Origin: Minisyncoccota bacterium | GTDB taxonomy: Bacteria; Patescibacteriota; Microgenomatia; PFEM01; JAFGMK01 | Direction: 5' to 3' | Assembly: GCA_016927565.1 (NCBI GenBank) | Contig: JAFGMK010000024.1 | Coordinates: 6,105-70,104, forward strand | Length of the DNA stretch: 64,000 nt | Shown: positions 7,622-47,745 of the stretch, piece after piece | Layout: every line of letters begins with the position of its first letter | How positions within the stretch are numbered: the first letter of the stretch is position 1 | Notes under the pieces: model-generated | The model's database searches: none | The model's input: the letters and a program-made list of their open reading frames with translations, nothing else | What the model was told of the DNA's origin: nothing | Program-made: the position numbers and the translations under genes

Positions 7622-9520
7622 CTAACCCCAAAGTTCCCTCGTCAATTCAACATTTCTCGGATGAGTCAGAGTCGCCAGAGTTTCATCATCAAGATCATGA
7701 AGCCTTTGCCTAATAAAGGAGCTGTGAACATCCGACAAGGAGCCCATTAAAAAAACAGCCTGAACGCCATTATCAAAAACCCGGCCCATAACCGGAATCG
7801 CTTGATAAGCAGTTCCCAGCTCGCCCATTTGCAAATTTAAAACTGTCCGGATTCCATTTAGAAATTCGTGCCCTTGCGGTTCTGTTTCTTCGGTATAAAT
7901 GCCCCTAGCCCGATCAAGAGCATCAGTTCCCGTCAACCGACCCAAAGAAACAGTCAGACCCCGATCTTTAAATGCCTGACAATGAGCCAACAGCTTATCA
8001 GCTGTTGGCCTGCCGGCATCCCTGGCAGAATACAAAAAAATTCCCGCCTGACCCCTTGTCGCCTGGTGAACCATCTCCCGCCTGATTGCCGCCTTCCGCT
8101 CCAGATGCCTTTTTTCCGGATTGCCCCGATTAACACTAATCCCTACATAAACCGCGCCACCTCCAAACAGACTAGGAAACTGTCGCCCTGCTACCTCCCT
8201 TGCCGCTTCTTCATGGCCAACATGAATCGGCCCAAATTGTCCATGAAAATCAAGCACAGAAACCCCATTTCTGACTGTCCCTACACTGCGGGGTCGTTTA
8301 GTCCTTATCTCATGATCGTCAATCTGACGATTGTGTTTTCTCCAAACCGAATTATCCATCCCTAAAAACCGATAATAAGCCTCACTCCATTCAAAGGTGT
8401 GTAAACCTCGTAAGCGCATCTCTAAAATAAATTGGCCAATTAAAGAATGAGTAAACCCGGATAATTCCCCATCAACACCGCGGACATGAGAATTAAGTTT
8501 TTTAAAACCCCAACCTGCAAATGATTCCACTCCTCTCCCGGGAGAAAACTTAGGAACCAATAATTCCGACGGGGTAAAAGAAGCGCATAAACCCAAAAGA
8601 CTTTCCCTAGACAAAGCCAAAAGACGACGCCTAACCAAAGAACACATTTCTTGAGCCAACATCGCCCGATCAGTCACTGCCAGATTATTTTCCCCTCCCC
8701 TGTCAAGCCTCTCTCCCAAAGCTAAGGCTATTAACGGGATAATATCAGCCACCGAGGTTGATCTCAACGCCCCAACCTCCGAAGAACTTTCAAGAAAAAT
8801 GCCAAAAGTTTCGCTTGCTTTTGCTGCCGCCTGAGCAATCAAAACAAAATCTTGTTTTCGAGAGCCTTCCTCTCTTCCCAACTCTTGAGCACAAGCAGTC
8901 GAAAAATGTTCCAATTGAGCCACGCCATTCCAAGGACTATGCCAAGAAACATCTCTGCCAATCTGTTCCAAAGCCTCAATCCTTCTAAACTCTTCACTTC
9001 CCCAAACTTCACCCCGATCACTTAAATCATGATAAGCTGAATCCGCTAACGAAGAAGGTCCCGATCGAAATCCCTCCAGAGGCTTTATCTCTCCTCCTCT
9101 TAAAAACAAACCGGGGACAAGAACTGGATCAAGAAAGGCTAATCCAGCCAAAGACTGGAACCAACCGGCGATCGTCTCCGCTCTGACTCCCTGATCTAGC
9201 CAAACCCTAACATGCTCCCTGAAAGTCCTTGGTCCAACCGGATCCTTTCGGTTATAACCCATCGAAAAATGGGCAGCCGAACGATGAAGCCTCTCAAAAA
9301 CATTTACATCCGCACGAGAACTAAAAGCCAATGATCTAGTCAATAAACCAAAACCATCGGCCAGTTGAACCGTCAATGTCTGCTCCGGTGATTGTTCAAC
9401 TGCGATTACATACTCAGCAATCCGGCCTAGCCAAGTAGGACTTCTTAAAGCTTCAGGAGAAGCATTCAGGTCGCGAGCGTATCTTGCCAAAAGCAGGTTA
9501 TAACTTTCCGGCCTAGCCAT
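7622..9520 (-). CDS. hypothetical protein (632 aa)
   Basis: Long ORF. The C-terminal region has His-rich segments (LDFHGQFGPIHVGHEE). A sugar-active hydrolase or deacetylase fold is only a weak guess. Confidence 0.5.
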   Translation of the reverse strand: MARPESYNLLLARYARDLNASPEALRSPTWLGRIAEYVIAVEQSPEQTLTVQLADGFGLLTRSLAFSSRADVNVFERLHRSAAHFSMGYNRKDPVGPRTFREHVRVWLDQGVRAETIAGWFQSLAGLAFLDPVLVPGLFLRGGEIKPLEGFRSGPSSLADSAYHDLSDRGEVWGSEEFRRIEALEQIGRDVSWHSPWNGVAQLEHFSTACAQELGREEGSRKQDFVLIAQAAAKASETFGIFLESSSEVGALRSTSVADIIPLIALALGERLDRGGENNLAVTDRAMLAQEMCSLVRRRLLALSRESLLGLCASFTPSELLVPKFSPGRGVESFAGWGFKKLNSHVRGVDGELSGFTHSLIGQFILEMRLRGLHTFEWSEAYYRFLGMDNSVWRKHNRQIDDHEIRTKRPRSVGTVRNGVSVLDFHGQFGPIHVGHEEAAREVAGRQFPSLFGGGAVYVGISVNRGNPEKRHLERKAAIRREMVHQATRGQAGIFLYSARDAGRPTADKLLAHCQAFKDRGLTVSLGRLTGTDALDRARGIYTEETEPQGHEFLNGIRTVLNLQMGELGTAYQAIPVMGRVFDNGVQAVFLMGSLSDVHSSFIRQRLHDLDDETLATLTHPRNVELTRELWG

Positions 9521-19580: not shown

Positions 19581-21368
19581 CTACTTCTGAAGCCGATAAA
19601 GTTTTTTAATCTCTGCCAGAGTAGTGACCTGAGAGACTGATTTGTCATCCCGGAAGCGAAGCCATCTGGGAAAACGGAGAGCATAACCGCTGGTATGAAT
19701 TGGTGACTTGGTAATGTTATCTGCCTCGATTTCCACCAAAATTTCAGGCGCGCACCAAACATCAGGCCAAAGATTTTTATCAACTTGATAATTGATCGGC
19801 TTTTCTTTCACCGCCGCCTTTTCGCCCCGACGCCTCATTTCCTGCCATTGCTCATCCGAAGGACCGGTTCCTACTTTAGTCAGGCTGGTAATCAATCCGC
19901 TCGAGATCTTTTGGCAAATACCGACCAAGATCATTCCGATTCCAAAATCAGCCCGTTTACCCCGGCCCCGATAAAAACCCATCACCACTCCGTCAATCGT
20001 ATCCGCCAAACCGCCTCCTTTTTTCCCTTTTTCTTGCTTAAACTTCACCCAGGTATAACCCCGTCGGCCCGGATCATAAGCTGCTTGCCACTTCTTAACT
20101 ACTGCCCCCTCCAAACCGGCTTTAAGCTGCTGCTGGTGAAAACTTTTCAAATCAACCGGGTCATTGGTTATTATTTGCGGCGCCAAAAGAAAAGTTCGAT
20201 TTTTCCCCTCCACAATTGACTCTAAAATCTTTCTTCTCTGAGCAAAAGGAGCCTTTAAAAGATTCTGACCATCTTTATAAAGGACATCAAAGCAAAAATA
20301 ACGCATGGGAATCTTCCTGATTGTCTGTTTAATAGCGTGCTTGCGCTTTCTTTTAATCGTTTCCTGAAAAGGTAAAAGTTTACCGCTACCCGGATCATAA
20401 CCGATGGCTTCCCCATCCAAAATCACCTCTTGGGCTTTTAATTCTTCAAAACTGGCCAAAGCAAGATCAGGAAACATCCCCGCCACATTTTCCAGGTTGC
20501 GAGTAAAAATCCGGACAAATCCTTTTGTTTCCTCAGAGAACAAACCTTGATCACGAACTGATTTCTCTTGTTTTTGACGGCTAAAATGAATTTCCAATCG
20601 CGTTCCGTCCCATTTGGGCTCGACCGCAACCCGATCCTTTGACCCGGGCCGGCACATATGTTTAATCATTTCCCCTGCATCCGGCAATCGCTGGCAAAGC
20701 GCTAGAACCACCGGCGTTCCTAAGGAAATCCCGACCTCGCCCAAGCCGGCCAAACCATCAAGCTTAGCTACCTGAGCAATGAAGCCGACATCAGCCCGAA
20801 CATTATAAGCCGCTTCAATTTTTGGTTTAAGGTTTTTATTTCCGGCTAAGAACCAGCTTAAAGAATCTAAAATCGTCTGGTCTGAAAAACCCAGGCGCAA
20901 CTTACCCAAGGTAATTCGGACAATATACTTAGCACTCTGCCCATCCAGCTTTTTTAAAACAGCAACCAGGCCGCTTACCTTCCTTTCCACCGATCCCTGA
21001 CCGTGATCTTGAGCAATTCTTAACAATGAATTAAACACTTGATCAACCGTCAGCGACTGGCCAGCCGCTTTTTTATCCAACTCAAAAGCAATGCTGCCCA
21101 AGTCGCCTAATCGGCCATAAACTTTTCCCACCTGACTTTCTTTCTGATGATAGGCCCGGCCTAAAATCCTAATCATCAGTTTTTCAGCCAAATTAAACTC
21201 AATTCCCAGATGGCGGGGACCCAGCCTTCCCAAGGCCAGATAGCAGATTTTATCAATTTCATCAGGCCGGGCTTCTTTAAAAAGCCGGGCCAAAATAACC
21301 GTTTTTTCGTTCCTGGAAGCAGTATTTTCCAATTTCGAAAAATAGTCAGCTAAGCGGGAGAAATTCAT
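19581..21368 (-). CDS. ATP-dependent DNA ligase
   Basis: KWDGTRLEIH (KxDG adenylation motif) plus downstream ligase motifs. The ORF track extends to 21449, but the likely start is MNFSRL (ATG 21366-21368), overlapping the upstream ORF stop as TAATG. Confidence 0.8.
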   Translation of the reverse strand: MNFSRLADYFSKLENTASRNEKTVILARLFKEARPDEIDKICYLALGRLGPRHLGIEFNLAEKLMIRILGRAYHQKESQVGKVYGRLGDLGSIAFELDKKAAGQSLTVDQVFNSLLRIAQDHGQGSVERKVSGLVAVLKKLDGQSAKYIVRITLGKLRLGFSDQTILDSLSWFLAGNKNLKPKIEAAYNVRADVGFIAQVAKLDGLAGLGEVGISLGTPVVLALCQRLPDAGEMIKHMCRPGSKDRVAVEPKWDGTRLEIHFSRQKQEKSVRDQGLFSEETKGFVRIFTRNLENVAGMFPDLALASFEELKAQEVILDGEAIGYDPGSGKLLPFQETIKRKRKHAIKQTIRKIPMRYFCFDVLYKDGQNLLKAPFAQRRKILESIVEGKNRTFLLAPQIITNDPVDLKSFHQQQLKAGLEGAVVKKWQAAYDPGRRGYTWVKFKQEKGKKGGGLADTIDGVVMGFYRGRGKRADFGIGMILVGICQKISSGLITSLTKVGTGPSDEQWQEMRRRGEKAAVKEKPINYQVDKNLWPDVWCAPEILVEIEADNITKSPIHTSGYALRFPRWLRFRDDKSVSQVTTLAEIKKLYRLQK

Positions 21369-21562
21369 TAAAAAATATTCTGGGAGAAAAAAAGAAAAGT
21401 AAAAACAACCACTCCGATGAACAGGAACCCAAAAACAATCGAAAGCCAACCCATTCTTTCACTTTTTAAAATTTTATTCAGACCTTCGCCAATTAAAGTT
21501 AAACCAAAAAGCGTCGGCAAGATTAGAAACATATAAAGAAACTGAGGGTCCTTGGTATTCAT
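21368..21562 (-). CDS. small 2-TM membrane protein (64 aa), possibly translationally coupled to the ligase
   Basis: Two hydrophobic helices. Its stop shares 1 nt with the ligase start. No homology recognisable. Confidence 0.35.
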   Translation of the reverse strand: MNTKDPQFLYMFLILPTLFGLTLIGEGLNKILKSERMGWLSIVFGFLFIGVVVFTFLFFSQNIF

Positions 21563-21569
21563 TGATCCC

Positions 21570-22679
21570 CTATTGTTTCATAATATAAACAGCCCCTTTA
21601 GTTTTGCCCCTCTTCTTCACAATACCCTTTTTGACAAAATAGTTCAAATCTCTCAAAAGAGTGTCCTCGCTGTATTCGGGAATCAGTTTTTTGGCCTGAC
21701 TGGTTTTTAGACGTTGATTTTCTTCCAAGTACTCCATCAAACGGATTTGGCGTTCATTTAAAGGAATCTGGCGGCCCAAACGGCTTTTTACCTTGGCATC
21801 CAGAGAAAGCCTTCTTACTCTTTCCTTAACCTGAGTCAGTTCAATCGCCATTACCTCACAAAAGTATTCGAGCCAGGGGGTCAAATCGCGTTTTTCCAGC
21901 TCTTCACTCTGAGCCGAAACTTTAAAAAGAGCCTGATAATAGCTGGCCGCGTCCCGGTCAAAGTATTCCTCCAAAGCAAAAAAACGCTTGATATCATATC
22001 TTTCCGCGAAAAGAACCAGCGTGGCAAAAGCTCGGGCTGTTCGACCGTTTCCCTCGACAAAGGGGTGAATTGCCGCCAAAACATAATGGGCCACTCCGGC
22101 TCGCAGAACCGGATGAATCTCGCAGGCAGTTTTTAAATTGATCCAATGGACAAAATCTTCAACCAGGTAAGGCACCTCGACAGCCGGCGGCGGCCGAAAG
22201 AAAACCTCACCGGTACTGGTCTCTCTCAAAATTACCTGAGTAATCCGATATTGTCCTTGCTGCTCAAGAGAAATAATCCGCTCGCAAACCAAAGCGTGGA
22301 TTTTTTTAATCATTTTTTGGGTATAACGCCATCGGATTTTTCTCTCTTTTTCCGCTGGCTTATTCCTAGAGGTTTTTTCCTTGAATTTAGCCAGCTCATC
22401 AATAAAGTGGATAACCCGCCGATAATTAATCACTTCCTGGACATCCCGCTCCCGCGCCACCACCTGCTCCCCCTCTAAAACCTTAATTGCCTGATTAAGG
22501 TTTAAAGCATTGCCTTCGAGATGAGTTCCGTAATGGACTGTCCGATTAAGAGCTTCTTTTCTAAACTTCATCAGATAGGCCGGAATTAAAGGAGCGTTTA
22601 GAATTACTTCCCGCGCAGCCTCAATTAGACCGATATTTTTTAAAATCTTGTTTGTAATCGTAAATTGCGGCTGATACAC
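21570..22679 (-). CDS. Fic family protein (AMPylation-type Fic motif) with a C-terminal winged-helix-like extension
   Basis: HPFVEGNGRTARAF matches the Fic motif HxFx(D/E)GNGRxxR. An N-terminal THLEGN segment resembles, but does not exactly fit, the (S/T)xxxE(G/N) inhibitory motif. Confidence 0.85.
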   Translation of the reverse strand: MYQPQFTITNKILKNIGLIEAAREVILNAPLIPAYLMKFRKEALNRTVHYGTHLEGNALNLNQAIKVLEGEQVVARERDVQEVINYRRVIHFIDELAKFKEKTSRNKPAEKERKIRWRYTQKMIKKIHALVCERIISLEQQGQYRITQVILRETSTGEVFFRPPPAVEVPYLVEDFVHWINLKTACEIHPVLRAGVAHYVLAAIHPFVEGNGRTARAFATLVLFAERYDIKRFFALEEYFDRDAASYYQALFKVSAQSEELEKRDLTPWLEYFCEVMAIELTQVKERVRRLSLDAKVKSRLGRQIPLNERQIRLMEYLEENQRLKTSQAKKLIPEYSEDTLLRDLNYFVKKGIVKKRGKTKGAVYIMKQ

Positions 22680-38283: not shown

Positions 38284-39150
38284 ATGAATAGCAATCTTGA
38301 CTCGCTTGAGACTGCCCACAAAAGGCTGGTTAACCATCTAAAAAACAAGGGCCGCGCTCAGGCAACTATCCTTGCCTACCGGAAGGATATTGAACAGTTA
38401 GTCGCTTTTCTAAAAGACAAAGGCATTAGTCAGACAACTTCAGTTACTTCCGACCACATTGAAGAATTCAAAAAAAGTCTGATGGAAAAAAAATACACTG
38501 CCAAGTCGGTTTCAAGAAAGCTCAATGCCATTAAAACTTTCTTTAAATTCCTGGAAGAAGAAGGCGTCCTGCTCTTAAACCCGGCCACAGCCGTTGCCCA
38601 CCCGAAATACAAAATTAAGGCACCGCGGATTCTTTCCCAGATGGAATACCGGGCCATCCGAGACGCCGCCAGGGAAGACACTCGTATTTCCACAATAATT
38701 GAACTTTTACTTCAAACCGGAATGAGAATCGGCGAATTAGCCCGGCTGGAAACCGGCGATGCTAATGAAAAAACCTTAACCATCCGAGGCTATGAATCTC
38801 ATAAACAAAGAGACATTCCGCTGAACCGATCGGCCCGAAAAGCCCTGGAAGCCTACCTTGAAACCAGACCCAAAGTCCGCACCCGATCGTTATTTGTCAC
38901 CAAAAACGGCCGGCCGTTTTTAGTCAGAAACATCAGAAGCGCAATTGAACGCTATTTCCGTATCGCCGGTTTAGAAAATGCCAAAGTTAACGATCTCAGA
39001 CATACCTTTATTGCCCACCAATTAGGTGCCGGCAACTCCGTTGTCCTGATTCAAAAATTAGTTGGACACAAAAGACTTTCCACTACTGAAAGATATTTGG
39101 AATTCGTCGAAAGCACCTCTTCTGAAGAAGTTAAGATCAAAGAATTGTAG
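38284..39150 (+). CDS. tyrosine recombinase, XerC/XerD family
   Basis: An N-terminal SAM-like core-binding domain. The catalytic region shows R...HTFIAHQLGAGNSVVLIQKLVGHKRLSTTERY (R-H-R-Y tetrad with the terminal Tyr). Confidence 0.85.
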   Translation: MNSNLDSLETAHKRLVNHLKNKGRAQATILAYRKDIEQLVAFLKDKGISQTTSVTSDHIEEFKKSLMEKKYTAKSVSRKLNAIKTFFKFLEEEGVLLLNPATAVAHPKYKIKAPRILSQMEYRAIRDAAREDTRISTIIELLLQTGMRIGELARLETGDANEKTLTIRGYESHKQRDIPLNRSARKALEAYLETRPKVRTRSLFVTKNGRPFLVRNIRSAIERYFRIAGLENAKVNDLRHTFIAHQLGAGNSVVLIQKLVGHKRLSTTERYLEFVESTSSEEVKIKEL

Positions 39151-39194
39151 CTAAATCAAAATCTCCGAAGCCTAACCTTATCCAAAATACCCTG

Positions 39195-39266
39195 TGCGCC
39201 TGCTTGGATTCGAACCAAGAACCCTCGACTTATAAGATCGATGCTCTACCGTTGAGCTACAGGCGC
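39195..39266 (-). tRNA. tRNA-Ile with anticodon UAU (reads AUA)
   Basis: Minus-strand fold: GCGCCTG-TA-GCTC-AACGGTA-GAGC-A-TCGAT-CTTATAA-GTCGA-GGGTT-CTTGG-TTCGAAT-CCAAG-CAGGCGC-A. Anticodon loop C-T-[TAT]-A-A. No encoded CCA. Confidence 0.8.
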
Positions 39267-39295: not shown

Positions 39296-41629
39296 TTATA
39301 ACTTGGCCCGCTGGGCAATTTCTGATTCCACTAACTGCCTGTCCTGACCGTATTTCAACCGGGAAAGATTCCTTACCATTTCCCCTACCCTGGGATCTTT
39401 CATCTTTTCCAAAGCAGCCATGTCCCGATAAAGATCAACTGAAAAAGGCGGCACCGGCTCATTCCTGACAATCGTTTTCATATAAATGTGGTAGCGCTCG
39501 ATATTCAGAAGATCGTCTTCAGCAAAAGTGGGCTGGAATTCATGAGTTAAATAAGAAGCATCATTCACTCCCACCCGAAAAGACATAATCGTTCCCACAT
39601 TTCCGAAAATGGCATTTTTAACCTCCTCATCCATCTGCCCGATAAATTGATTGGCAACGGTTAAATTCAGCCGGTATTTCCGGGCTTCTGAGAGAATCTG
39701 GGCAAAATCCGGAGTGGCAAAGTTTTGAAATTCATCAACATAAAGATAAAAATCGCGCCGCTGGTCCTCAGGAATATCCGCCCGGCTCATCGCCGCCATT
39801 AACAATTTCGGCACAAAAACCAAACCCAAAAAAGAACTGTTCTCTTCGCCGATCTTCCCTTTAGCCAAATTAATTATCAAAATCTTCCCTTCGTCCATTG
39901 CCCGCCGGAAATCAAAAGAAGACTTTGATTGGCCGATAATATTCCGCATTGTTTTATTGGTAACAAAGCGGCCGAATTTAGATACGATGTAGTCAAGCAC
40001 TTCGCTTTTATGAAAGTCTGAAGTCTGGGCAATCTGGTCGGTCCAGTAACGTTTAACCATCGGGTCTTTAACCTTAGGCAAAAGCTCCTGAACATATTTA
40101 GCATCAGTCAGGCAACGGACAATTTCGACGAAGCTGCTTCCCTCCTCACACATGACTGTCAACATGGCATTCCTGATCGCATGCTCAAACCGGGGACCGA
40201 TAATGCCGGTTTTATAAGGGTCATAAAGTTTGTACATTAAATTTATAATCGCCCCGGTAACAAAATGCTTTTGCTCTTCATTCTGAACTTCAAGCAAGTT
40301 AAAACCCATCGGCCTTTCGGTATCCGAGGGGTCAAAGTAAATTACATCCTCGGCTCTTTCCGGCGGAATAAATTCAAGCAGACTTTCCGCCAGATCATGA
40401 GGATCAATTAAGCAAATTCCTTTCCCGGCCCGAATGTCTTGAAGAATCATATCTTTTAAAAGCTCGGTTTTGCCGACCCCGGTTTTACCAATCACATAAA
40501 CATGGCGGCGGCGGTCCTTATCGCTCAGATAGACCGGCCGGCTCATTCCCCGGTAAGTCGATTTGCCGACATAAAGACCGCTCTTGGGAATCTGAACCGG
40601 CGCCGGTGCTGTTTTGGCATAAAGCCAGTGAATGTGAGGCGTTTCGACTGTTTTATTGGGAAAGTGAAAAATGGTTGCCAGCTCTTCTGAAGAAAGAATT
40701 GAGTGGCCCATTCCCATATAGACCAGCGGCATATAGCGATAAATAAAATCAATCATAAATAATTTTTTAAACCAGATCTTACTGGTTTTAAGCCCGTTCA
40801 GATTAGAGGAAAACTGCTCAAAAGAAGACTTGATGTTTTCCAGATGAGCTTCAGCCTGTTCCTCGGTGGTTGAAGAAACCACAATCCGAATCAAAGTCTC
40901 AAAACCGGGCTTACTGGTTTTACTTTCGATTGCTTCCAAAGTTTTAGCATCGACTTTAAAAGAAGCTTTTTCAACATCTGCCTCTTCCTTTTTTGTTTTG
41001 GAGATAAATGACTTGCCCGCACTCTGCCAACTGCTTCCGGCCGGAACTACATTAATTTGAATTACCGCCCCTTCTCCTTCACTCATCTTCGCCAGTGAAG
41101 TAGTAATCAGGGAAAGCGGGTCAGTTGCTAATTCTCGGTAAGACTTAAGAGGATAATAAGAATCTTTACTCAACTGAAGCTGGGCAAAGGCAACCTTCCC
41201 TTCCTGAGAAAAAATATTGTATTCAGAAACTTTCTTAAGTTCGGCAGACGGATAAGCCCCGTAAATTTGCTTTTCAATAAAATCCTGAAGATCCTTAGGA
41301 ACCGAAATGTAAAAGCGGATATCTTCGGGCCGGGCAACAATTTCAAAACAAAGGTGATTGGGAGGCTTAAGGTTTAAAAAATCGCTGCTTGTTTTAATTG
41401 AATTCAAAGACGCAAAAAACTGTTCGGCAGTATCGATTTTAGTTTCATTATTAAAAGGAACTGCCACCTGCAAAAGAACCGACTGAAGAGATCTTTCTTC
41501 CCGCTTCTGATTTCTTTTCGTCAGCAGGAAAAAATAAAGCCCAATCACCAATCCCAAAAATAAAAAGACCAGAACACCGATGACGGCAAGGAAAAGACCC
41601 AGATTGCCCGTAAGGGCTTCCATATTCAT
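39296..41629 (-). CDS. membrane-anchored P-loop NTPase of the FtsK/HerA/VirB4-TraG type (conjugation/type-IV-secretion-like ATPase)
   Basis: A single N-terminal TM helix, then about 340 aa of unknown domain, then Walker A YVIGKTGVGKT followed by ICLIDPHDL (like the HerA/TraD -DPKGE- segment) and Walker B LYVDEFQNF; 777 aa. Confidence 0.55.
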   Translation of the reverse strand: MNMEALTGNLGLFLAVIGVLVFLFLGLVIGLYFFLLTKRNQKREERSLQSVLLQVAVPFNNETKIDTAEQFFASLNSIKTSSDFLNLKPPNHLCFEIVARPEDIRFYISVPKDLQDFIEKQIYGAYPSAELKKVSEYNIFSQEGKVAFAQLQLSKDSYYPLKSYRELATDPLSLITTSLAKMSEGEGAVIQINVVPAGSSWQSAGKSFISKTKKEEADVEKASFKVDAKTLEAIESKTSKPGFETLIRIVVSSTTEEQAEAHLENIKSSFEQFSSNLNGLKTSKIWFKKLFMIDFIYRYMPLVYMGMGHSILSSEELATIFHFPNKTVETPHIHWLYAKTAPAPVQIPKSGLYVGKSTYRGMSRPVYLSDKDRRRHVYVIGKTGVGKTELLKDMILQDIRAGKGICLIDPHDLAESLLEFIPPERAEDVIYFDPSDTERPMGFNLLEVQNEEQKHFVTGAIINLMYKLYDPYKTGIIGPRFEHAIRNAMLTVMCEEGSSFVEIVRCLTDAKYVQELLPKVKDPMVKRYWTDQIAQTSDFHKSEVLDYIVSKFGRFVTNKTMRNIIGQSKSSFDFRRAMDEGKILIINLAKGKIGEENSSFLGLVFVPKLLMAAMSRADIPEDQRRDFYLYVDEFQNFATPDFAQILSEARKYRLNLTVANQFIGQMDEEVKNAIFGNVGTIMSFRVGVNDASYLTHEFQPTFAEDDLLNIERYHIYMKTIVRNEPVPPFSVDLYRDMAALEKMKDPRVGEMVRNLSRLKYGQDRQLVESEIAQRAKL

Positions 41630-41640
41630 AATAACTTATC

Positions 41641-42186
41641 TCAATTCTCGTAATCTTCTGCCGAGGAGTTCGTTGCCATCCCCGGCTTATTTTTGTAAAC
41701 TTGATTTTGATCGGCCCGGACCGCTTGGACTCGAGGTTGATTTTTAGTCTTTTTTTGTTTCGGGGGTTTTCTGTTAAAAACACCCCCCATCAACCTAATC
41801 AGACGGATACACCATTCCGCCAGCCAGCGGATAGAATCAACCATTTTATGAGTCGTTCCTTCTCTGATTTCCTCTTCGGTCAAAGGCAAAACAATTCCTG
41901 TCGCGTCATCACCGGAATTGCTGACTAAAACCTGGCCCGTTTGATCATCCGTCACCGACTGAGTAAGCCGGGTCGCCGCCCCGGGAACCGGCTGGGCCAT
42001 CTCAATTTCTCTGGGAATTTCCGGAATATCAAGCCTCTCAACTACCGGAAATTGATTCAGCCCCTTGCCGAAAACTCCTTCCACAACCTTTTGCCTCTCT
42101 TCAAGTGAAACTGGTTTTGTTTCTTTTTCTTTGTCTGTCAACGTCACAGTAAAATGAAGAACCTGATCCTGATTGTTCTTCTCCAA
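41641..42186 (-). CDS. hypothetical protein (181 aa), with an acidic N-terminus and a basic KKTKNQ tail
   Basis: ORF only. Transcribed first in the same minus-strand run, with its stop 12 nt from the ATPase start. Confidence 0.45.
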   Translation of the reverse strand: MEKNNQDQVLHFTVTLTDKEKETKPVSLEERQKVVEGVFGKGLNQFPVVERLDIPEIPREIEMAQPVPGAATRLTQSVTDDQTGQVLVSNSGDDATGIVLPLTEEEIREGTTHKMVDSIRWLAEWCIRLIRLMGGVFNRKPPKQKKTKNQPRVQAVRADQNQVYKNKPGMATNSSAEDYEN

Positions 42187-42424
42187 TTTCCCATTATATT
42201 AAACGGATAGAAGAATCACAATGAGGAACAATAAAAAAAATCAGTTTTGGTCTTGCAATTTTTCCAGAAGTTTTTTGGCGGAGGTAAATTTGCGAAACCG
42301 ATGGCGTCCTGAAACTGAACGACTCGGCTCTTTTTTTTCCCACCAAAAGGAAGTTCCGTTTTTAACCCCGTTTTTACCAGCCATACAAATAATTCTTAAT
42401 AGACTATTAAACGATAGTCAAGTA

Positions 42425-43216
42425 TCAAATAAAATCCCCGCCCACTCCCCGCAATTTAGTTTTTGGGATCATTTCTGAAATCATTTTTTTAAAAGCTTTC
42501 AACTGGGAAACAGCAAAAGGCTCTATTTCATTGAATCCAGGGTCAAGGCAGTTTTTGGGTTGAAAAGACTGAAGAACCCAGGAGAAATCTCTAATTTTCC
42601 GACCGCAACCGGCAAACAGGTTTTTTAAATCCCGAGCCATTGTCAGCAAAACCTTTTCATCATGGATGGTCGGTACTATGGTTGTCCGGAATTCAAACGG
42701 CAAGCCAGAGTCTATTATCAACCGCATAGATTCCTTAATTCCAGCGGCTAACGATCCCGGATCGTCTGCAGATTTCGATCCTGGATCGGATTGCCCCCCG
42801 GATTTAATTCCAACTACATTTTCATAATCCGAAAATGTAGTCTTATAATCCATCGCCCAAAAATCTACCAGTTTTGCCTCAAGCAATTTTTTGATGACCT
42901 CAGGCCGACTACCGTTAGTTTCTATCATTATCTTAAAACCCAAAGCTTTAACCTTAGTTGAAAACCCCAAAAGGTCTGGCTGGAGAGTCGGTTCACCACC
43001 GGTAACCGCCACACCATCAATCCATTTGCTCCGCCGCTTCAAATCCGTCAAAACAATCTTCTCGCTGTGATGTTTCAGCTTTTTACTATTGATTTTCACC
43101 AGGTCGCGATTGTGGCAAAACGGACAGGCAAAATTGCAGCCCGGGACAAAGATCACTGAAGCAATCTTGGTCGGCCACTCGATCAGAGAGGTTTTTAAAT
43201 AACCGGCAATTTTCAT
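42425..43216 (-). CDS. nrdG: anaerobic ribonucleotide reductase activating protein (radical SAM, NrdG/PflA family) carrying a 20-codon in-frame insertion
   Basis: CNFACPFCHN radical-SAM cluster motif near the N-terminus. An internal GIK-SGGQSDPGSKSADDPGSLAAG-IKESM segment is encoded by a copy of the GATCCCGGATC repeat element. Confidence 0.8.
   Translation of the reverse strand: MKIAGYLKTSLIEWPTKIASVIFVPGCNFACPFCHNRDLVKINSKKLKHHSEKIVLTDLKRRSKWIDGVAVTGGEPTLQPDLLGFSTKVKALGFKIMIETNGSRPEVIKKLLEAKLVDFWAMDYKTTFSDYENVVGIKSGGQSDPGSKSADDPGSLAAGIKESMRLIIDSGLPFEFRTTIVPTIHDEKVLLTMARDLKNLFAGCGRKIRDFSWVLQSFQPKNCLDPGFNEIEPFAVSQLKAFKKMISEMIPKTKLRGVGGDFI
42748..42808. repeat. GATCCCGGATC-family element, copy B, inside the nrdG coding sequence and flanked by an 8-bp direct repeat TTAATTCC
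   Basis: ctaaCGATCCCGGATCGtctgcagatttCGATCCTGGATCGgattgccccccggattt. TTAATTCC occurs at 42736-42743 and 42804-42811. Confidence 0.7.
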
Positions 43217-43223
43217 AAAAACT

Positions 43224-43275
43224 AATCGATCCCGGATCCTCAGGTATTTCTAATCCGGGATCTTAAATCCCCAGA
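43224..43275. repeat. GATCCCGGATC-family element, copy C
   Basis: ctaatcGATCCCGGATcctcaggtatttctaATCCGGGATCttaaatcccc, in the nrdG-nrdH intergenic region. Confidence 0.65.
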
Positions 43276-43301
43276 TTAATTTTGGACTCTATGCCTTAAT
43301 T

Positions 43302-43562
43302 TTAAAGCTTATCAAGAATCGCCGACTCTTTCGGCACTTTTCCTCGCCATTCGGCCGCTATCTTGCCTTTATCATCAACCAGAATCATCGTCGGTGTCGC
43401 CATTACCTGATAAAAAGCCCCCTCGGCCATTCCCTCAATTTTATCAACATCAAACCATTCAATTTGAATCCTGACCTGGCTTTTATTTTCCAAATCCCTG
43501 CCCAATTTTTTAGCCGGAGGACATTTAGGACAATTATTTCTGGTAAAAATTTTTAAGATCAT
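43302..43562 (-). CDS. nrdH: NrdH/glutaredoxin-like small redoxin
   Basis: 86 aa. A thioredoxin fold with CPKCP redox motif. Located between nrdD and nrdG. Confidence 0.65.
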   Translation of the reverse strand: MILKIFTRNNCPKCPPAKKLGRDLENKSQVRIQIEWFDVDKIEGMAEGAFYQVMATPTMILVDDKGKIAAEWRGKVPKESAILDKL

Positions 43563-43579
43563 AAAAAATCCTTTTTTTC

Positions 43580-45733
43580 TTAAAACCGACCCTCATTTTT
43601 GTGACGATCGTTAAGCTCTCCTATCTTACCCTTATTCCAGCGGCTGATACGGGAATAAAAACCGGTCACTCGCGTCACCCCGTCAACTTCTTCCGAGCCG
43701 CACTTAGGACAAGCATCATGAAGGCCCCGTGTTGTCGCCAGACAACAATCACAAATTGTAAATTCCGGCGAAAAGGCAATCAGACCGTTCTGGGTTTGTT
43801 CAAAGGTTTTTTTGACAAAACTCGCAATCGAAACCGGATCCGGGTTCTGTTCCCCCAACCAGAGATGACTAATGGCTCCGGCATCAATTAAAGGATGAAA
43901 AAGGCCTTCTTTGGTCACTCTTTCAATCGGATCAATATTTTCGGAAATATTCAATTGGGTCGAGTTGGTATAGTAAATATAATCATCTTCCCATCGTCCC
44001 TTAATCACTTTCCGTGATTGATCAGGATAAAAACGCTTATCCAGTTTGGCAAAGCGATAAGTCAGTCCTTCAGCCGGAGTCTGTTCCAAAACATAATCCA
44101 TCTTATCCCGCCGGCTCATTTCTTTGGCCTTCTTATTGATGGCCGCCACAATCTTCAAACCCAATTTTAAAGCCTCGTTACTTTCATGCAGCTGTTGTCC
44201 CAGACAATACTCAACTGTTTCATTCACGCCGAAAATACCTACCAGAAACTTGGCTTTTTTAAAGCGGTAATACATTTCAGGATCATCCTTTTGCCGGGTT
44301 GTCAGCGAGCCGAGAGGACCCTGAAGCCCCATCTCAAGAAGTCGTTTAATAAACCGTCTTTTCTGTTGATGGGCTTTGGCTAAAAGTTCCATTCCCTTGT
44401 CAATTTCTTTAAACAGTTTTTCCGATTTACCCTTAGCTTTGTAAGCCATCCGAGGCAGATTCAAGGAAACGTTTTGCATTGCTGAATGGCGCATCTGCCA
44501 GGGTTTTTTGGCTTCCTCGAGATCTTTTTTATTCAGATTGAAAGAAAGCCGGCAGCACTCGGAAATCCGGGCTGTTTTTCCCCGATCCAAAACAAAATAA
44601 GTGTTGCCTCTTTCAGCTGCCACCCGCGAAGCCAGCCGGAGAAACTCCTTATGACCCGGAGTGGCCCAAAATTTTTCCGTAATGTGCAAATTCGGCTTCG
44701 GCCAGAAAAAGGGCCGGCCGGCCCCGTCTCCCTCCAGGTAAATTTCAAAAATGGCTCTTAAGAAATCCTGTGATTCTTTCTCGTAGTCCTGATAATTTTT
44801 GCCGGTATAAACTCCTCCGGGGCCAATGGCCGGAGTTTTGGCAAAATGATCCGGTACTTCCCAGTAAAGGTTAATATCTGAAAAAATTGCTTGCCCCCCC
44901 CGAGCTACATTCTGCATATTAAACTCAAATAAAAGCATTTGAGCCAGCTGCCTTATCTCGGCAAAGGGCATTCCCACCAAATAAGGCGCCATAAAAAGAT
45001 TGACCGCATCAAAACCAATTGCCCCGGCAAAATGAACCTGGAGCATCGCTGCCAGCTTAATAATCTGCAGTATTAAAACCTGAGCATGCTTTGCCGGTTT
45101 GGCCACTGCCAATGACGAGGCAATGTCTAAACCATACTTCTTAACATATTCAATCGATTGACCACAGCAATAAGGCCGATCAATGAAATCGAGATCATGA
45201 AGATGTAAATCCCCCCGAGCATGAGCCTCAGCCACTTCTTGAGAAAAAACTCGACGGAGAGCGTATTCTTTTTTGATATTTCGAGCCAAAGAGAGATTGG
45301 TAGCTTCGGTATTATGAGGAACATTGGCATTAATCCGATTTTGTTCCGTCAACATTTTATGGACATCATAAATCGGGACTCCTAAACGAACGTGCTTATA
45401 GTAATATTTTTCCAAGCCTCGAGATAATAATTCAGCATTAGTCATCTCCCGAATTAAATTGGTAGAAACATGTTTAACTTTGGAGTCAACGATTTGTTTT
45501 TCCACTTCCCGGGCAATCCTCATTGCCAGATATTCATCCATCCCGGTTTCAATAATCAGCCTTTTGGCAATTTGGGTCACATCCCATTTTTTTAAAGCCT
45601 CATCAGAAGTAGAAACAAAAAACATCACATCAGTGGCCTGATGTTTTTGGGCATTAGCCAGGTATTTAGCCTGCTTTCTGGTTAAGCCGCTGCCGTTTTT
45701 GCCATTTTGATATTTATCTATTTCGCTAGGCAT
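43580..45733 (-). CDS. nrdD: anaerobic ribonucleoside-triphosphate reductase (class III large subunit), with an N-terminal ATP-cone-like region
   Basis: HLHDLDF motif, a C-terminal zinc ribbon (CDCC...CPKC), and the glycyl-radical motif TRVTGFY; 717 aa. Confidence 0.85.
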   Translation of the reverse strand: MPSEIDKYQNGKNGSGLTRKQAKYLANAQKHQATDVMFFVSTSDEALKKWDVTQIAKRLIIETGMDEYLAMRIAREVEKQIVDSKVKHVSTNLIREMTNAELLSRGLEKYYYKHVRLGVPIYDVHKMLTEQNRINANVPHNTEATNLSLARNIKKEYALRRVFSQEVAEAHARGDLHLHDLDFIDRPYCCGQSIEYVKKYGLDIASSLAVAKPAKHAQVLILQIIKLAAMLQVHFAGAIGFDAVNLFMAPYLVGMPFAEIRQLAQMLLFEFNMQNVARGGQAIFSDINLYWEVPDHFAKTPAIGPGGVYTGKNYQDYEKESQDFLRAIFEIYLEGDGAGRPFFWPKPNLHITEKFWATPGHKEFLRLASRVAAERGNTYFVLDRGKTARISECCRLSFNLNKKDLEEAKKPWQMRHSAMQNVSLNLPRMAYKAKGKSEKLFKEIDKGMELLAKAHQQKRRFIKRLLEMGLQGPLGSLTTRQKDDPEMYYRFKKAKFLVGIFGVNETVEYCLGQQLHESNEALKLGLKIVAAINKKAKEMSRRDKMDYVLEQTPAEGLTYRFAKLDKRFYPDQSRKVIKGRWEDDYIYYTNSTQLNISENIDPIERVTKEGLFHPLIDAGAISHLWLGEQNPDPVSIASFVKKTFEQTQNGLIAFSPEFTICDCCLATTRGLHDACPKCGSEEVDGVTRVTGFYSRISRWNKGKIGELNDRHKNEGRF

Positions 45734-45774
45734 ATTTTGGTTTGGACAGGGTCTGAGCCCTCATCATTTCCCAA

Positions 45775-47745
45775 TCAAATATTTTTATTTCGATGCCGGT
45801 CCCTGAGTTCCGCCTTCTTGCCCCGCCCCCATGAACTGGTAAAGGTATAATAGCCGGTAATCCTCGTAATTCCATCTACCTTTCTGGAATGACAATAAGG
45901 ACAACTCCCCAATAATCCCCGAGCTAAACGCCGGCACTTTAAGCACAAGGTAAATTCGGGTGAAAGGGCAACTTGGGTATTTTGGGTCCGGTTAAAAGTC
46001 TTTTTAATTAACCGGCCGACAGAAGCAGGACTCGGCTCGCGCTCCCCTAACCAAAGATGGGTAATATTACCGCCTTCAATTAGAGGATGGAAAAGGCCTT
46101 CCTTTTCAATTCTGTCTAAGGGATCAATCTCGGCATCAACATCTAAATGAGTTGAGTTGGTATAATAAACTGAACCGGATTCAGGATCACCGTGAACAAT
46201 CTTAAGGGCTTGTTTGGGAAACCGGCTCAAATCAAGCCGGGCAAAACGATAGCAGGTTGACTCAGCCGGATCCTGTTCAAGAATGATTTTTAACCGGCTT
46301 TTTTTGCTTTCCTGATCGCAAAGATATTTCATGAAAGCCACTATTTTCAGACCAAATTTCAGCGCCTGATCGCTCTCATGCATCTTCTGGCCCAAATGCG
46401 CCCGAACACAGTCGCCCACCCCCAAGACACCGACCAAATAGGCCATTTTGGTAAAACGCAAATATGATTCTTTTTCACCCTCCTGTTTAACCGTCAACAA
46501 TCCCAAAGGGCCGGTTTCTCGCCGATCCAAGAGTTTTTTTAAGAAGGCTCCTTTTTGTTTATGAGCCTCGAAAACCAGTTGCATCCTTTTTCTGATCAAT
46601 TCAAAAAGCTTTTTTTCATTTCCTTTGGCCTGATAAGCAATCCTAGGCAAATTAAGAGAAATATAAGGAGCTGCGGAAAAACGCATCCGCCAAGGTTTTT
46701 TAGTGTCTTTTAAATCCTCACTGGAAAGAGTGAAAGAGACCCGGCAGCATTCAGAAATCTTGGCAGTTTTTCCCCGATCCAGCATAAAGTAAGGATTACC
46801 TGTTTTGGTCGCCACTTCGCAAACATGATTCAAAAACCGACTATGCCCCGGAGTGGCCCAAAACTTGTCGGTAATATGGAGATTGGGCTTGGGCCAAAAA
46901 AAAGGCGAACCCTGGCTGTCGCCTTTTTTATAAACGGAAAAGATTTGCCAAACAAAGCTCTGAGCTTCTTTTTCATAATCACCATAAACCTTGCCGGTAT
47001 ATTGACCCCGGGGACCAATAGCCGGAACCTTTTCAAAATGAGCCGGCACCTCCCAATAAAGATTGAGATCAGAAAAAATCGGCTGACCGCCATGAGGTCC
47101 GATAGTTTGATTAAATTGATGAATCAACTTTTGCGCCGCCTGATAGATTTCACTATCGGAGAGGCCTGTCAAATAAGGCGCCAAAAATAAATTAACCGCG
47201 TCCCAGCCGATCGCCCCGCCAAAATTAGCCCTGAGAGCCAAAGAAAACCGGTAAAGATGATCCAAAGCTGAGTCAATGTGAGCGGCCGGCCTGGTCGCCG
47301 CAAAACTGGCATAACGGTTAAGACCGTATTTTTTAACATACTCAACGCTCTGGCCGGAACAATAAGGCCGGTCAATAAAACCTAATTTATGAAGATGCAA
47401 ATCTCCCCGCCGGTGAGCCCGAGCCACTGATTTAGAATAAACCTTATTTAGGGCATACTCTTTTTTAACAAACTCGGACAGAGTAAAACTTGTTCCCTCA
47501 GGAGTGTTGGGCATATTGGCATCGCTCCGGCTACCTTCTTTCGCGATGACAGTCTCAATCTCCTCTAAAGAAAGAGAGACTCTTCCGTCTTCACCTGTAT
47601 CCTCAAAATGGAAAAGGCCATTCCCGTTACTGTTTTGGGAATGATTGTCTTTTTTCTGAACTTTAGGACCGGGTAATATCCGGGCCAATTGCCGGGAAAT
47701 TCCCAAAGAAAAATCGGTCACATCAAGTCGTTTTTTTTGAACCAT
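45775..47745 (-). CDS. nrdD: second class III ribonucleotide reductase paralog (no ATP-cone)
   Basis: HLHKLGF, a zinc ribbon (CLKC...CPYC), and the Gly-radical motif TRITGYY; 656 aa. Collinear with the upstream copy across most of its length. Confidence 0.8.
   Translation of the reverse strand: MVQKKRLDVTDFSLGISRQLARILPGPKVQKKDNHSQNSNGNGLFHFEDTGEDGRVSLSLEEIETVIAKEGSRSDANMPNTPEGTSFTLSEFVKKEYALNKVYSKSVARAHRRGDLHLHKLGFIDRPYCSGQSVEYVKKYGLNRYASFAATRPAAHIDSALDHLYRFSLALRANFGGAIGWDAVNLFLAPYLTGLSDSEIYQAAQKLIHQFNQTIGPHGGQPIFSDLNLYWEVPAHFEKVPAIGPRGQYTGKVYGDYEKEAQSFVWQIFSVYKKGDSQGSPFFWPKPNLHITDKFWATPGHSRFLNHVCEVATKTGNPYFMLDRGKTAKISECCRVSFTLSSEDLKDTKKPWRMRFSAAPYISLNLPRIAYQAKGNEKKLFELIRKRMQLVFEAHKQKGAFLKKLLDRRETGPLGLLTVKQEGEKESYLRFTKMAYLVGVLGVGDCVRAHLGQKMHESDQALKFGLKIVAFMKYLCDQESKKSRLKIILEQDPAESTCYRFARLDLSRFPKQALKIVHGDPESGSVYYTNSTHLDVDAEIDPLDRIEKEGLFHPLIEGGNITHLWLGEREPSPASVGRLIKKTFNRTQNTQVALSPEFTLCLKCRRLARGLLGSCPYCHSRKVDGITRITGYYTFTSSWGRGKKAELRDRHRNKNI

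Follow-up and report, generated by a model that had tools for sequence, protein, structure and literature searches.

Type IV coupling proteins (T4CPs) such as VirD4/TraG/TraD, TrwB and DotL possess a RecA-like nucleotide-binding domain (NBD) with Walker A and B, IDPxGD, ARK and Q motifs, the two Walker motifs being separated by a helical insert, and are anchored to the membrane at the N-terminus, canonically by two transmembrane helices. The VirB4 ATPases of type IV secretion systems (T4SSs), including TrwK of R388 and the VirB3-VirB4 fusions, follow a plan in which an N-terminal domain (NTD) precedes the motor. In Patescibacteria, which account for much of bacterial diversity and rely on host cells, the T4SS has been tested in a single species and is essential there, and the essential T4SS cluster of Southlakia epibionticum is without a recognisable coupling protein (Wang et al., PMC10633639). 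The literature discusses a single T4CP homologue, which is dispensable, and this has led to the suggestion that T4CPs have been exapted for other functions. Here we analysed a two-gene locus, consisting of a small soluble partner and a membrane-anchored ATPase, in a 64,000-nucleotide stretch of a Minisyncoccota bacterium (contig JAFGMK010000024.1 of assembly GCA_016927565.1, positions 6,105 to 70,104 of the forward strand; hereafter the window). The ATPase shares with T4CPs the N-terminal membrane anchor and all of the motor features listed above. By contrast, it has one transmembrane helix instead of two and carries an extra domain of about 300 aa, similar to the NTD of VirB4, between anchor and motor. 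As judged by sequence for the motor and by structural modelling for the N-terminal domain (N-domain), a VirB4-like front half is combined in this protein with a motor half of coupling-protein type, and this hybrid architecture represents a data point on the divergence of the two T4SS ATPase families.

Assignment of the window ATPase to the T4SS ATPase superfamily is supported by profile searches of its C-terminal half. Three T4CP families of Pfam, T4SS-DNA_transf (PF02534), TrwB_AAD_bind (PF10412) and TraG-D_C (PF12696), matched this half with scores narrowly over their gathering scores (22.9/20.1, 22.4/20.5 and 25.6/22). The best NCBIfam models were TraD (2e-13, 49.7 bits with a cutoff of 366) and the CD1115 VirD4-like family (7e-12, 44.9 bits with a cutoff of 250), with TrbC scoring 36.3 bits for a cutoff of 800, all of them well short of equivalog cutoffs. 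When a profile of 73 family members was compared with the PDB, the closest solved structures were TrwB (6e-8) and DotL (3e-6), and TrwK/VirB4 and FtsK were absent among its matches. The VirB4_CagE model TIGR00929 reached 15.1 bits against a cutoff of 643, and the VirB4 Pfam models PF03135 and AAA_10 did not match the window ATPase. In the 73-sequence alignment, residues G381, G386 and K387 of Walker A are invariant, as are D632, E633, F634, Q635 and N636 in the Walker B region. The initial annotation of the window had described an ATPase with one N-terminal transmembrane helix, the GKTGVGKT Walker A and a Walker B motif, preceded by an open reading frame (ORF) of 181 aa, and all of these were confirmed. 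Its likening of the protein to both conjugative coupling proteins and VirB4-type ATPases also held, each likeness applying to one half of the protein.

The identity of the front half came from structure prediction. A full-length AlphaFold2 model built on the 73-sequence alignment (pLDDT 87.1) began with a long N-terminal helix, which was followed by an N-domain of alpha/beta type (about residues 50-340) and by a RecA-like domain; the latter contained a helical insert (about residues 445-620) that resembles the all-alpha domain. In a Foldseek comparison with the PDB, this model matched full-length TrwK/VirB4 of the R388 T4SS first (E 1e-16, 820-898 columns) and TrwB second (E 1e-12, about 430 columns, TMt 0.60-0.68, reaching 0.68 with TrwB-deltaN70), with HerA and Cag-beta ranking after TrwB. 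The N-domain modelled alone (residues 42-345; pLDDT 88.5, pTM 0.89) gave TrwK/VirB4 chains as all of its best 14 matches (E 9e-9 to 4e-6, TMq 0.46-0.52), the 15th being an unrelated oxidase (E 8e-4). This region corresponds to Pfam PF26449, named DUF8128 in gene tables, which precomputed matches place on the N-terminal region of the identical database protein (P0001, see below) and of every listed homologue. The N-domain that had been called of unknown type thus has, by its predicted structure, a VirB4-NTD-like fold for which TrwK/VirB4 is the only PDB match. Among the proteins from the search of cluster representatives, P0134 and P0136 (1700-2000 aa) possess DUF8128 and the motor domain and continue for a further 900-1200 aa or so at the C-terminus, and P0186 and P0192 (about 1440 aa) carry the same motor domain at the C-terminus (about 50% identity over residues 311-775) with TPR repeats replacing DUF8128.

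The transmembrane helix at residues 8-37 is the sole hydrophobic segment of the ATPase by hydropathy. Given that it is directly followed by the basic stretch KRNQKREER, the positive-inside rule predicts an N-out/C-in topology with the remainder of the protein in the cytoplasm. The helix may be VirB3-like, a likeness for which no sequence support was obtained. It bears on the possibility that the protein is a divergent VirB4 paralogue, namely an assembly or pilus-biogenesis ATPase having its N-terminal helix in place of a fused VirB3. Like VirB4 proteins, the window ATPase combines an NTD with a motor and resembles them in size, N-terminal membrane helix and N-domain fold; the order of transmembrane helix, NTD and NBD within about 780 aa is that of VirB3-VirB4 fusions, TrwK/VirB4 is the best structural match for both the full-length protein and the N-domain, and the small upstream gene occupies the position of virB3. 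However, by sequence T4CP models fit the motor half far better than VirB4 models do, the upstream partner is soluble and without a transmembrane segment, unlike VirB3, and Patescibacteria already possess a separate monophyletic VirB4 together with TrsD and PrgI/VirB3. We thus consider a VirB4 paralogue quite improbable. The coordinates of the two genes, of their domains and motifs, and of adjacent features are collected in Table 1.

Table 1. Features of the partner-ATPase locus (positions in the window; residues refer to the 777-aa ORF)
Feature	Position	Strand	Details
DUF8128/T4CP-like ATPase gene	39296..41629	-	777-aa ORF; 775 aa in NCBI (second ATG as start)
Single N-terminal transmembrane helix (predicted)	41519..41608	-	residues 8-37; hydropathy, translation, AlphaFold2 helix 3-39
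N-domain, PF26449/DUF8128, predicted VirB4-NTD-like alpha/beta fold	40595..41506	-	residues 42-345
T4CP-type NBD	39299..40582	-	residues 350-777; PF12696, PF02534, PF10412
Walker A GKTGVGKT	40466..40489	-	residues 381-388
Walker B FYLYVDEF	39728..39751	-	residues 627-634
Small soluble partner gene	41641..42186	-	181 aa as longest ORF, TTG start; 11-nt gap before ATPase start codon
Promoter-like site, candidate operon promoter	42193..42221	-	TTGTGA-17-TATAAT, 10/12; consensus match only
tRNA-Ile(UAU)	39194..39266	-	anticodon TAT; 29 nt past ATPase stop, co-oriented; context, no functional link implied
Tyrosine recombinase, Xer-type	38284..39150	+	43 nt from tRNA-Ile

A chance ORF can be excluded because 5,961 clusters matched the window ATPase at E<=1e-30 in a search of 1.84 billion cluster representatives (clusters at 50% identity), making it a real and strongly conserved gene. 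The database protein P0001 (NCBI, 775 aa, from a 'Candidatus Pacebacteria' metagenome-assembled genome), starting 2 residues later, is 100% identical to it and bears the name 'type IV secretory system conjugative DNA transfer family protein'. In a scan of GTDB with one genome per species, an ATPase relative was encoded in 599 of 600 pattern-matched stretches among the matches listed. The 80 loci kept from these stretches came from Microgenomates lineages, Dojkabacteria, WWE3, Saccharibacteria and Berkel-, Doudna-, Magasanik-, Uhr-, Portnoy-, Staskawicz- and Peregrinibacteria. Going by these sequence matches, the family that combines DUF8128 with a T4CP-type motor spans essentially all sampled Patescibacteria classes. 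Several records are titled as other phyla (Bathyarchaeia, 'uncultured Gammaproteobacteria', Limisphaerales and Methylomirabilota; L007, L008, L009, L032, L050 and others) and are probably mislabelled or misbinned contigs, because they show Patescibacterial synteny. In Parcubacteria-type loci, a conserved hypothetical protein of about 210-224 aa lies directly after the ATPase (L087 9670..10302, L088 9589..10263) and is followed by dnaX, with CorA and CysRS (the cysteinyl-tRNA synthetase) encoded upstream.

The small partner shows conservation of a different kind. A small ORF ends at or beside the ATPase start in 80 of 87 loci, commonly with an overlap of 1-4 nt, and a hidden Markov model seeded with the window partner recovered 23 of these ORFs, all from Microgenomates. 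The window partner was thus wrongly called an orphan: homologues occur in 23 loci, and almost every other locus has a counterpart at this position. Its core motifs IPxEIE, GQVL, LPLTEEE and SIRWLAEWxxRL are kept, LPLTEEE and SIRWLAEWxxRL being common to Microgenomates partners, and it has no Pfam, NCBIfam or PADLOC match. Parcubacteria-type loci possess a second partner type with the motif WLKxIPGVNRFFLEQEAKIKTDKI, and Saccharibacteria a third (type C) with the motif DLIEKEWV...DPY...YIKKRF. In all three types, a low-complexity N-terminal part precedes a short helical C-terminal part, and none of them contains a transmembrane segment. A common origin of the three types was considered and rejected: profile-profile comparison revealed no similarity among them (hhalign probabilities <=0.3%), and five partners searched against Pfam yielded no domain. 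The identification of the partner as VirB3 is likewise unsupported, given the lack of a transmembrane segment in every type. Since the position of the partner is conserved and its sequence is not, the pattern fits a lineage-specific adaptor or regulator, as judged from these comparisons, and not a VirB3 homologue. Coupling-type motors with a small soluble partner are known from Cag-beta/CagZ (8DOL) and TraD/TraM, and by analogy the partner here may bind the ATPase; the partners nonetheless have no detectable similarity to CagZ or TraM, or to one another between classes. The TTG start assigned to the window partner is doubtful. Because the TATAAT box, resembling a -10 element, ends only 6 nt ahead of this TTG at 42186, and because partners in close relatives measure 111-128 aa, translation probably begins further downstream and yields a shorter protein.

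The surroundings of the pair decide whether it belongs to mobile DNA. The initial annotation had taken the succession of small ORF, ATPase, tRNA and integrase for the edge of a mobile or secretion module. In agreement with such a proposal, that is, the remains or the border of an integrative or conjugative element, or a defence island, at a tRNA beside an integrase, a T4CP-like ATPase, a tRNA and a tyrosine recombinase do stand together, variable cargo lies between tRNA-Ile and Xer in some relatives (a TIR protein in one case, MgsA and ThyX in another), and the NBD matches PADLOC mad8 (57 bits, 5.5e-16). However, the gene order of the window, in which two PBP1a genes, an Rce1-like gene, a DUF5667 gene, ribonucleotide reductase (RNR) genes, partner, ATPase, tRNA-Ile, Xer, FtsB/DivIC, tRNA-Met, tryptophanyl-tRNA synthetase (TrpRS) and FtsH follow one another, each confirmed in the window, was reproduced in four relatives on long contigs. 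This housekeeping synteny around the ATPase holds in loci L001-L006 and in many GTDB loci, RNR and PBP genes being kept on its upstream side and TrpRS and FtsH on its downstream side across Microgenomates, and neighbourhood analysis of the relatives showed the order partner-ATPase-tRNA-Ile-Xer-DivIC to be conserved throughout that group. The recombinase, whose best NCBIfam models are XerC, XerD and XerA, thus sits beside FtsB/DivIC as a Xer-like protein. Identity of the ATPase across Microgenomates (62-80%) equals that of FtsH and exceeds that of Xer, TrpRS and PBP1a in the same loci, and its S. epibionticum counterpart is essential, as described below. GC content is flat across the window (0.42-0.46) with no compositional break, and no tRNA-Ile fragment of >=14 nt recurs within it. 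Among the window ORFs, neither a relaxase nor a recognisable T4SS gene was found, in line with the initial annotation on the latter point, and no other VirB4-, VirD4- or FtsK-like ATPase or P-loop translocase was detected. The edge of an integrative or conjugative element was therefore rejected on the grounds of synteny, flat composition and the missing tRNA repeat, and an anti-phage defence system was rejected too, given that the mad8 match covers the shared NBD only, no other mad genes are present, the partner is without a hit and the neighbours are housekeeping genes. Either form of this proposal is extremely improbable. On the evidence of sequence and gene order, the locus is a vertically inherited, core chromosomal two-gene unit (an operon) and not mobile DNA. 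Being core, chromosomal, phylum-wide and without relaxase or T4SS genes nearby, the ATPase differs from plasmid-borne and element-borne T4CPs.

The cargo between tRNA-Ile and Xer in L001/L002 (10.5-16.8 kb) and L006 (10.5-14.0 kb) comprises an MgsA-like AAA protein, several hypothetical proteins and ThyX in one relative, and a TIR-domain protein with a hydrolase in another. The tRNA-Ile/Xer junction may thus be an insertion hot spot, with the ATPase on its conserved side. The tRNA-Ile(TAT) directly after the ATPase is itself conserved across Microgenomates (L001, L003, L005, L006 and most loci). A tRNA-Ile with a UAU anticodon is unusual in bacteria, in which AUA is mostly decoded by a lysidine-modified CAU tRNA.

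That Xer and FtsB/DivIC lie directly downstream throughout Microgenomates raises the possibility that the ATPase, a member of the FtsK-HerA superfamily, is an FtsK-like translocase for division or chromosome-dimer resolution acting with these two neighbours. FtsK_SpoIIIE (PF01580) reached only 13.4 bits against a cutoff of 24, however, and other FtsK domains were not found by Pfam, the protein lacking the region of four transmembrane helices as well as the alpha and gamma domains. Moreover, linkage of the ATPase to Xer was not seen outside Microgenomates and Dojkabacteria. S. epibionticum possesses a canonical essential FtsK, SEML1_0096 (PMC10633639), besides SEML1_0142, the counterpart of the window ATPase introduced below, and a role in replacing FtsK is therefore less likely. 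A replacement of FtsK is largely refuted by this separate protein and by the missing FtsK signature, and an FtsK-like function beside Xer is very improbable. A housekeeping FtsK orthologue with a conserved division-gene neighbourhood, the case that the initial annotation had named against its own proposal, was not what we found, yet the ATPase is a core chromosomal gene all the same.

To relate the pair to published genetics, Saccharibacteria provide the connection. Their DUF8128 members show 43% identity to the window ATPase over an alignment of full length, measure 945-1080 aa, match PF26449 only and are named 'ATP-binding protein'; a type-C partner lies directly upstream and gyrB/gyrA 1.4-3.9 kb downstream. 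In a complete Saccharibacteria genome, the order is L20-L35-IF3-YifB, then partner, ATPase, two minus-strand genes, gyrB and gyrA. For S. epibionticum, two T4CP-like genes have been listed, SEML1_0293 and SEML1_0142 (Wang et al. 2023, PMC10633639). SEML1_0293 encodes 921 aa with a strong PF10412 match and was scored NE/NE/NE, that is, non-essential. By contrast, SEML1_0142 encodes 1019 aa without a Pfam match, is named 'ATP-binding protein' with a P-loop region at residues 381-800 (Tables S1 and S2 of PMC10633639), carries a core and Patescibacteria-enriched family flag, and was scored ES/ES/ES, that is, essential. It is preceded, with a 12-nt gap, by SEML1_0141 of 139 aa, in which insertions fell from 9 in the input to 0, and its neighbours are IF-3 and YifB upstream and two minus-strand genes, gyrB and gyrA after it (PMC10633639). 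Because the gene order of Saccharibacteria DUF8128 loci is that of SEML1_0137-0146, we concluded that SEML1_0141/0142 are the counterparts of the window pair, the basis being synteny, length and annotation pattern and not direct alignment. By this synteny, the matching pair is essential in the single species tested, according to the published transposon-insertion sequencing of SEML1_0141/0142. A recent survey called the T4CP homologue of S. epibionticum non-essential (Quinonero-Coronel et al. 2025, PMC12102498). Since that protein is SEML1_0293, the statement applies to the other paralogue and not to the DUF8128 lineage. The window ATPase resembles the T4CP homologues of the survey in being of the widespread VirD4-like type encoded far from virB4, but differs from the one on which non-essentiality was based in belonging, by synteny, with the essential SEML1_0141/0142 pair. 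The Saccharibacteria orthologues in L055, L072, L079 and L085 end in a low-complexity tail of about 200 aa with the motif SFLDEWLAKR and a terminal IxIDxxGxxH, a tail not present in the window ATPase.

Because the T4SS cluster of S. epibionticum is without a recognisable coupling protein, a motor of T4CP type that is essential and carries a VirB4-like docking domain is the obvious candidate for the 'missing' ATPase that would couple or energise the chromosomal T4SS of Patescibacteria, and we favour this identification tentatively, giving it slightly less than an even chance. In such a mechanism, the ATPase would be held by its single N-terminal helix with the remainder in the cytoplasm, and would most likely assemble as a hexameric ring at the inner face of the membrane, as TrwB and VirB4 suggest by analogy. 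ATP hydrolysis would then most likely power the passage of a macromolecular substrate, either protein or DNA, into a channel in the membrane. The small, soluble and partly disordered partner would most likely act on the motor as a bound adaptor or regulator, comparable to CagZ on Cag-beta or TraM on TraD, and the motor would energise a chromosomal T4SS encoded elsewhere, near dnaA, with which it may cooperate.

Several observations weigh against this identification. No T4SS gene is linked to the ATPase in the window, and of 5,713 T4CP homologues in Patescibacteria, just 148 are encoded close to virB4 (PMC12102498). The same survey counted T4CP homologues in 2,918 of 3,035 genomes and VirB4 in 2,417 of 3,035, so that at least about 500 assemblies possess a T4CP homologue with no detected VirB4, a figure that covers all T4CP-like paralogues and includes incomplete metagenome-assembled genomes. 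A protein with one transmembrane helix and an additional 300-aa domain departs from the canonical T4CP. The neighbours of the ATPase in three classes concern DNA metabolism (Xer and RNR; gyrB and gyrA; DnaX), which would equally fit a chromosome-related role. The orthology to SEML1_0142, as stated above, is drawn from synteny, length and annotation pattern.

Some of these observations instead argue for a T4SS-independent translocase, in which the operon would form its own minimal membrane-associated motor. Such a motor would work on DNA or nucleoprotein, for example to acquire DNA or nucleotides or to process the chromosome, similar to the crenarchaeal Ced DNA import system. The wider occurrence of T4CP homologues than of VirB4, their rare linkage to virB4 and the DNA-related neighbours all agree with such a device. 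CedB and CedD, which import DNA without virB4 and are homologous to parts of the VirB4 NTD (PMC11868833), resemble the window ATPase as VirB4/HerA-superfamily motors with VirB4-like NTD pieces and no canonical T4SS, and their NCBIfam models match it weakly. In addition, ComEC-dependent competence is dispensable in S. epibionticum, for which another uptake route has been postulated. By contrast, no channel-forming partner is evident, given a partner without a transmembrane segment and an ATPase with one transmembrane helix; the neighbourhood themes differ by class and could arise by chance in small genomes rich in information-processing genes; and the CedB/CedD matches are limited to the P-loop region with E of about 1e-3. 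CedB and CedD are furthermore archaeal, have the NTD split over two proteins and lack a T4CP-type motor signature, unlike the window ATPase. We regard a T4SS-independent translocase as the main rival, plausible but somewhat unlikely. A bolder version, which we hold to be doubtful, would place the DUF8128 lineage as a third branch, deeply rooted among T4SS ATPases, in which the VirB4-type N-domain and the VirD4-type motor are both retained; it would have arisen by ancient fusion or survive as a relic of the VirB4/VirD4 ancestor. Together with its fast-evolving partner, it would form an essential, T4SS-independent translocation device specific to Patescibacteria, possibly the route by which host macromolecules such as DNA or nucleotides are taken up.

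Returning to the ATPase as a candidate motor of the chromosomal T4SS, the family itself is already known, being annotated in databases as T4CP homologues and counted in the published survey (PMC12102498). The initial annotation had suggested a novel stand-alone translocase; its position away from T4SS genes in the window stands, but novelty does not extend to the family as such, and its architecture and essentiality were not found discussed. In the literature, we found no paper that recognises DUF8128 as VirB4-NTD-like or that reports the hybrid architecture, the conserved small-partner operon or the assignment of SEML1_0141/0142 to this lineage, and no specific description of DUF8128 or of an essential Saccharibacterial coupling protein. 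The DUF8128 lineage thus represents an overlooked paralogue and a genetically tractable candidate for either the missing motor or a separate essential translocase.

Other genes of the window were noted in passing. Upstream of the partner (42425..47745, minus strand), two NrdD-like anaerobic RNR genes coding for 717 and 656 aa stand in tandem, together with genes for a radical-SAM activase of the NrdG type and for a thioredoxin-like protein. In L001 and L005, an RNR of class I/II type is found at this position instead. A 632-aa ORF at 7622..9520 (minus strand) has no Pfam match at 1e-5 and contains a GPIHVGH motif, resembling the HxGH motif of nucleotidyltransferases, near residue 440. Finally, an ATP-dependent DNA ligase of archaeal/eukaryotic type (19581..21449, minus strand) adjoins a gene for a Fic-domain protein (21570..22679, minus strand).

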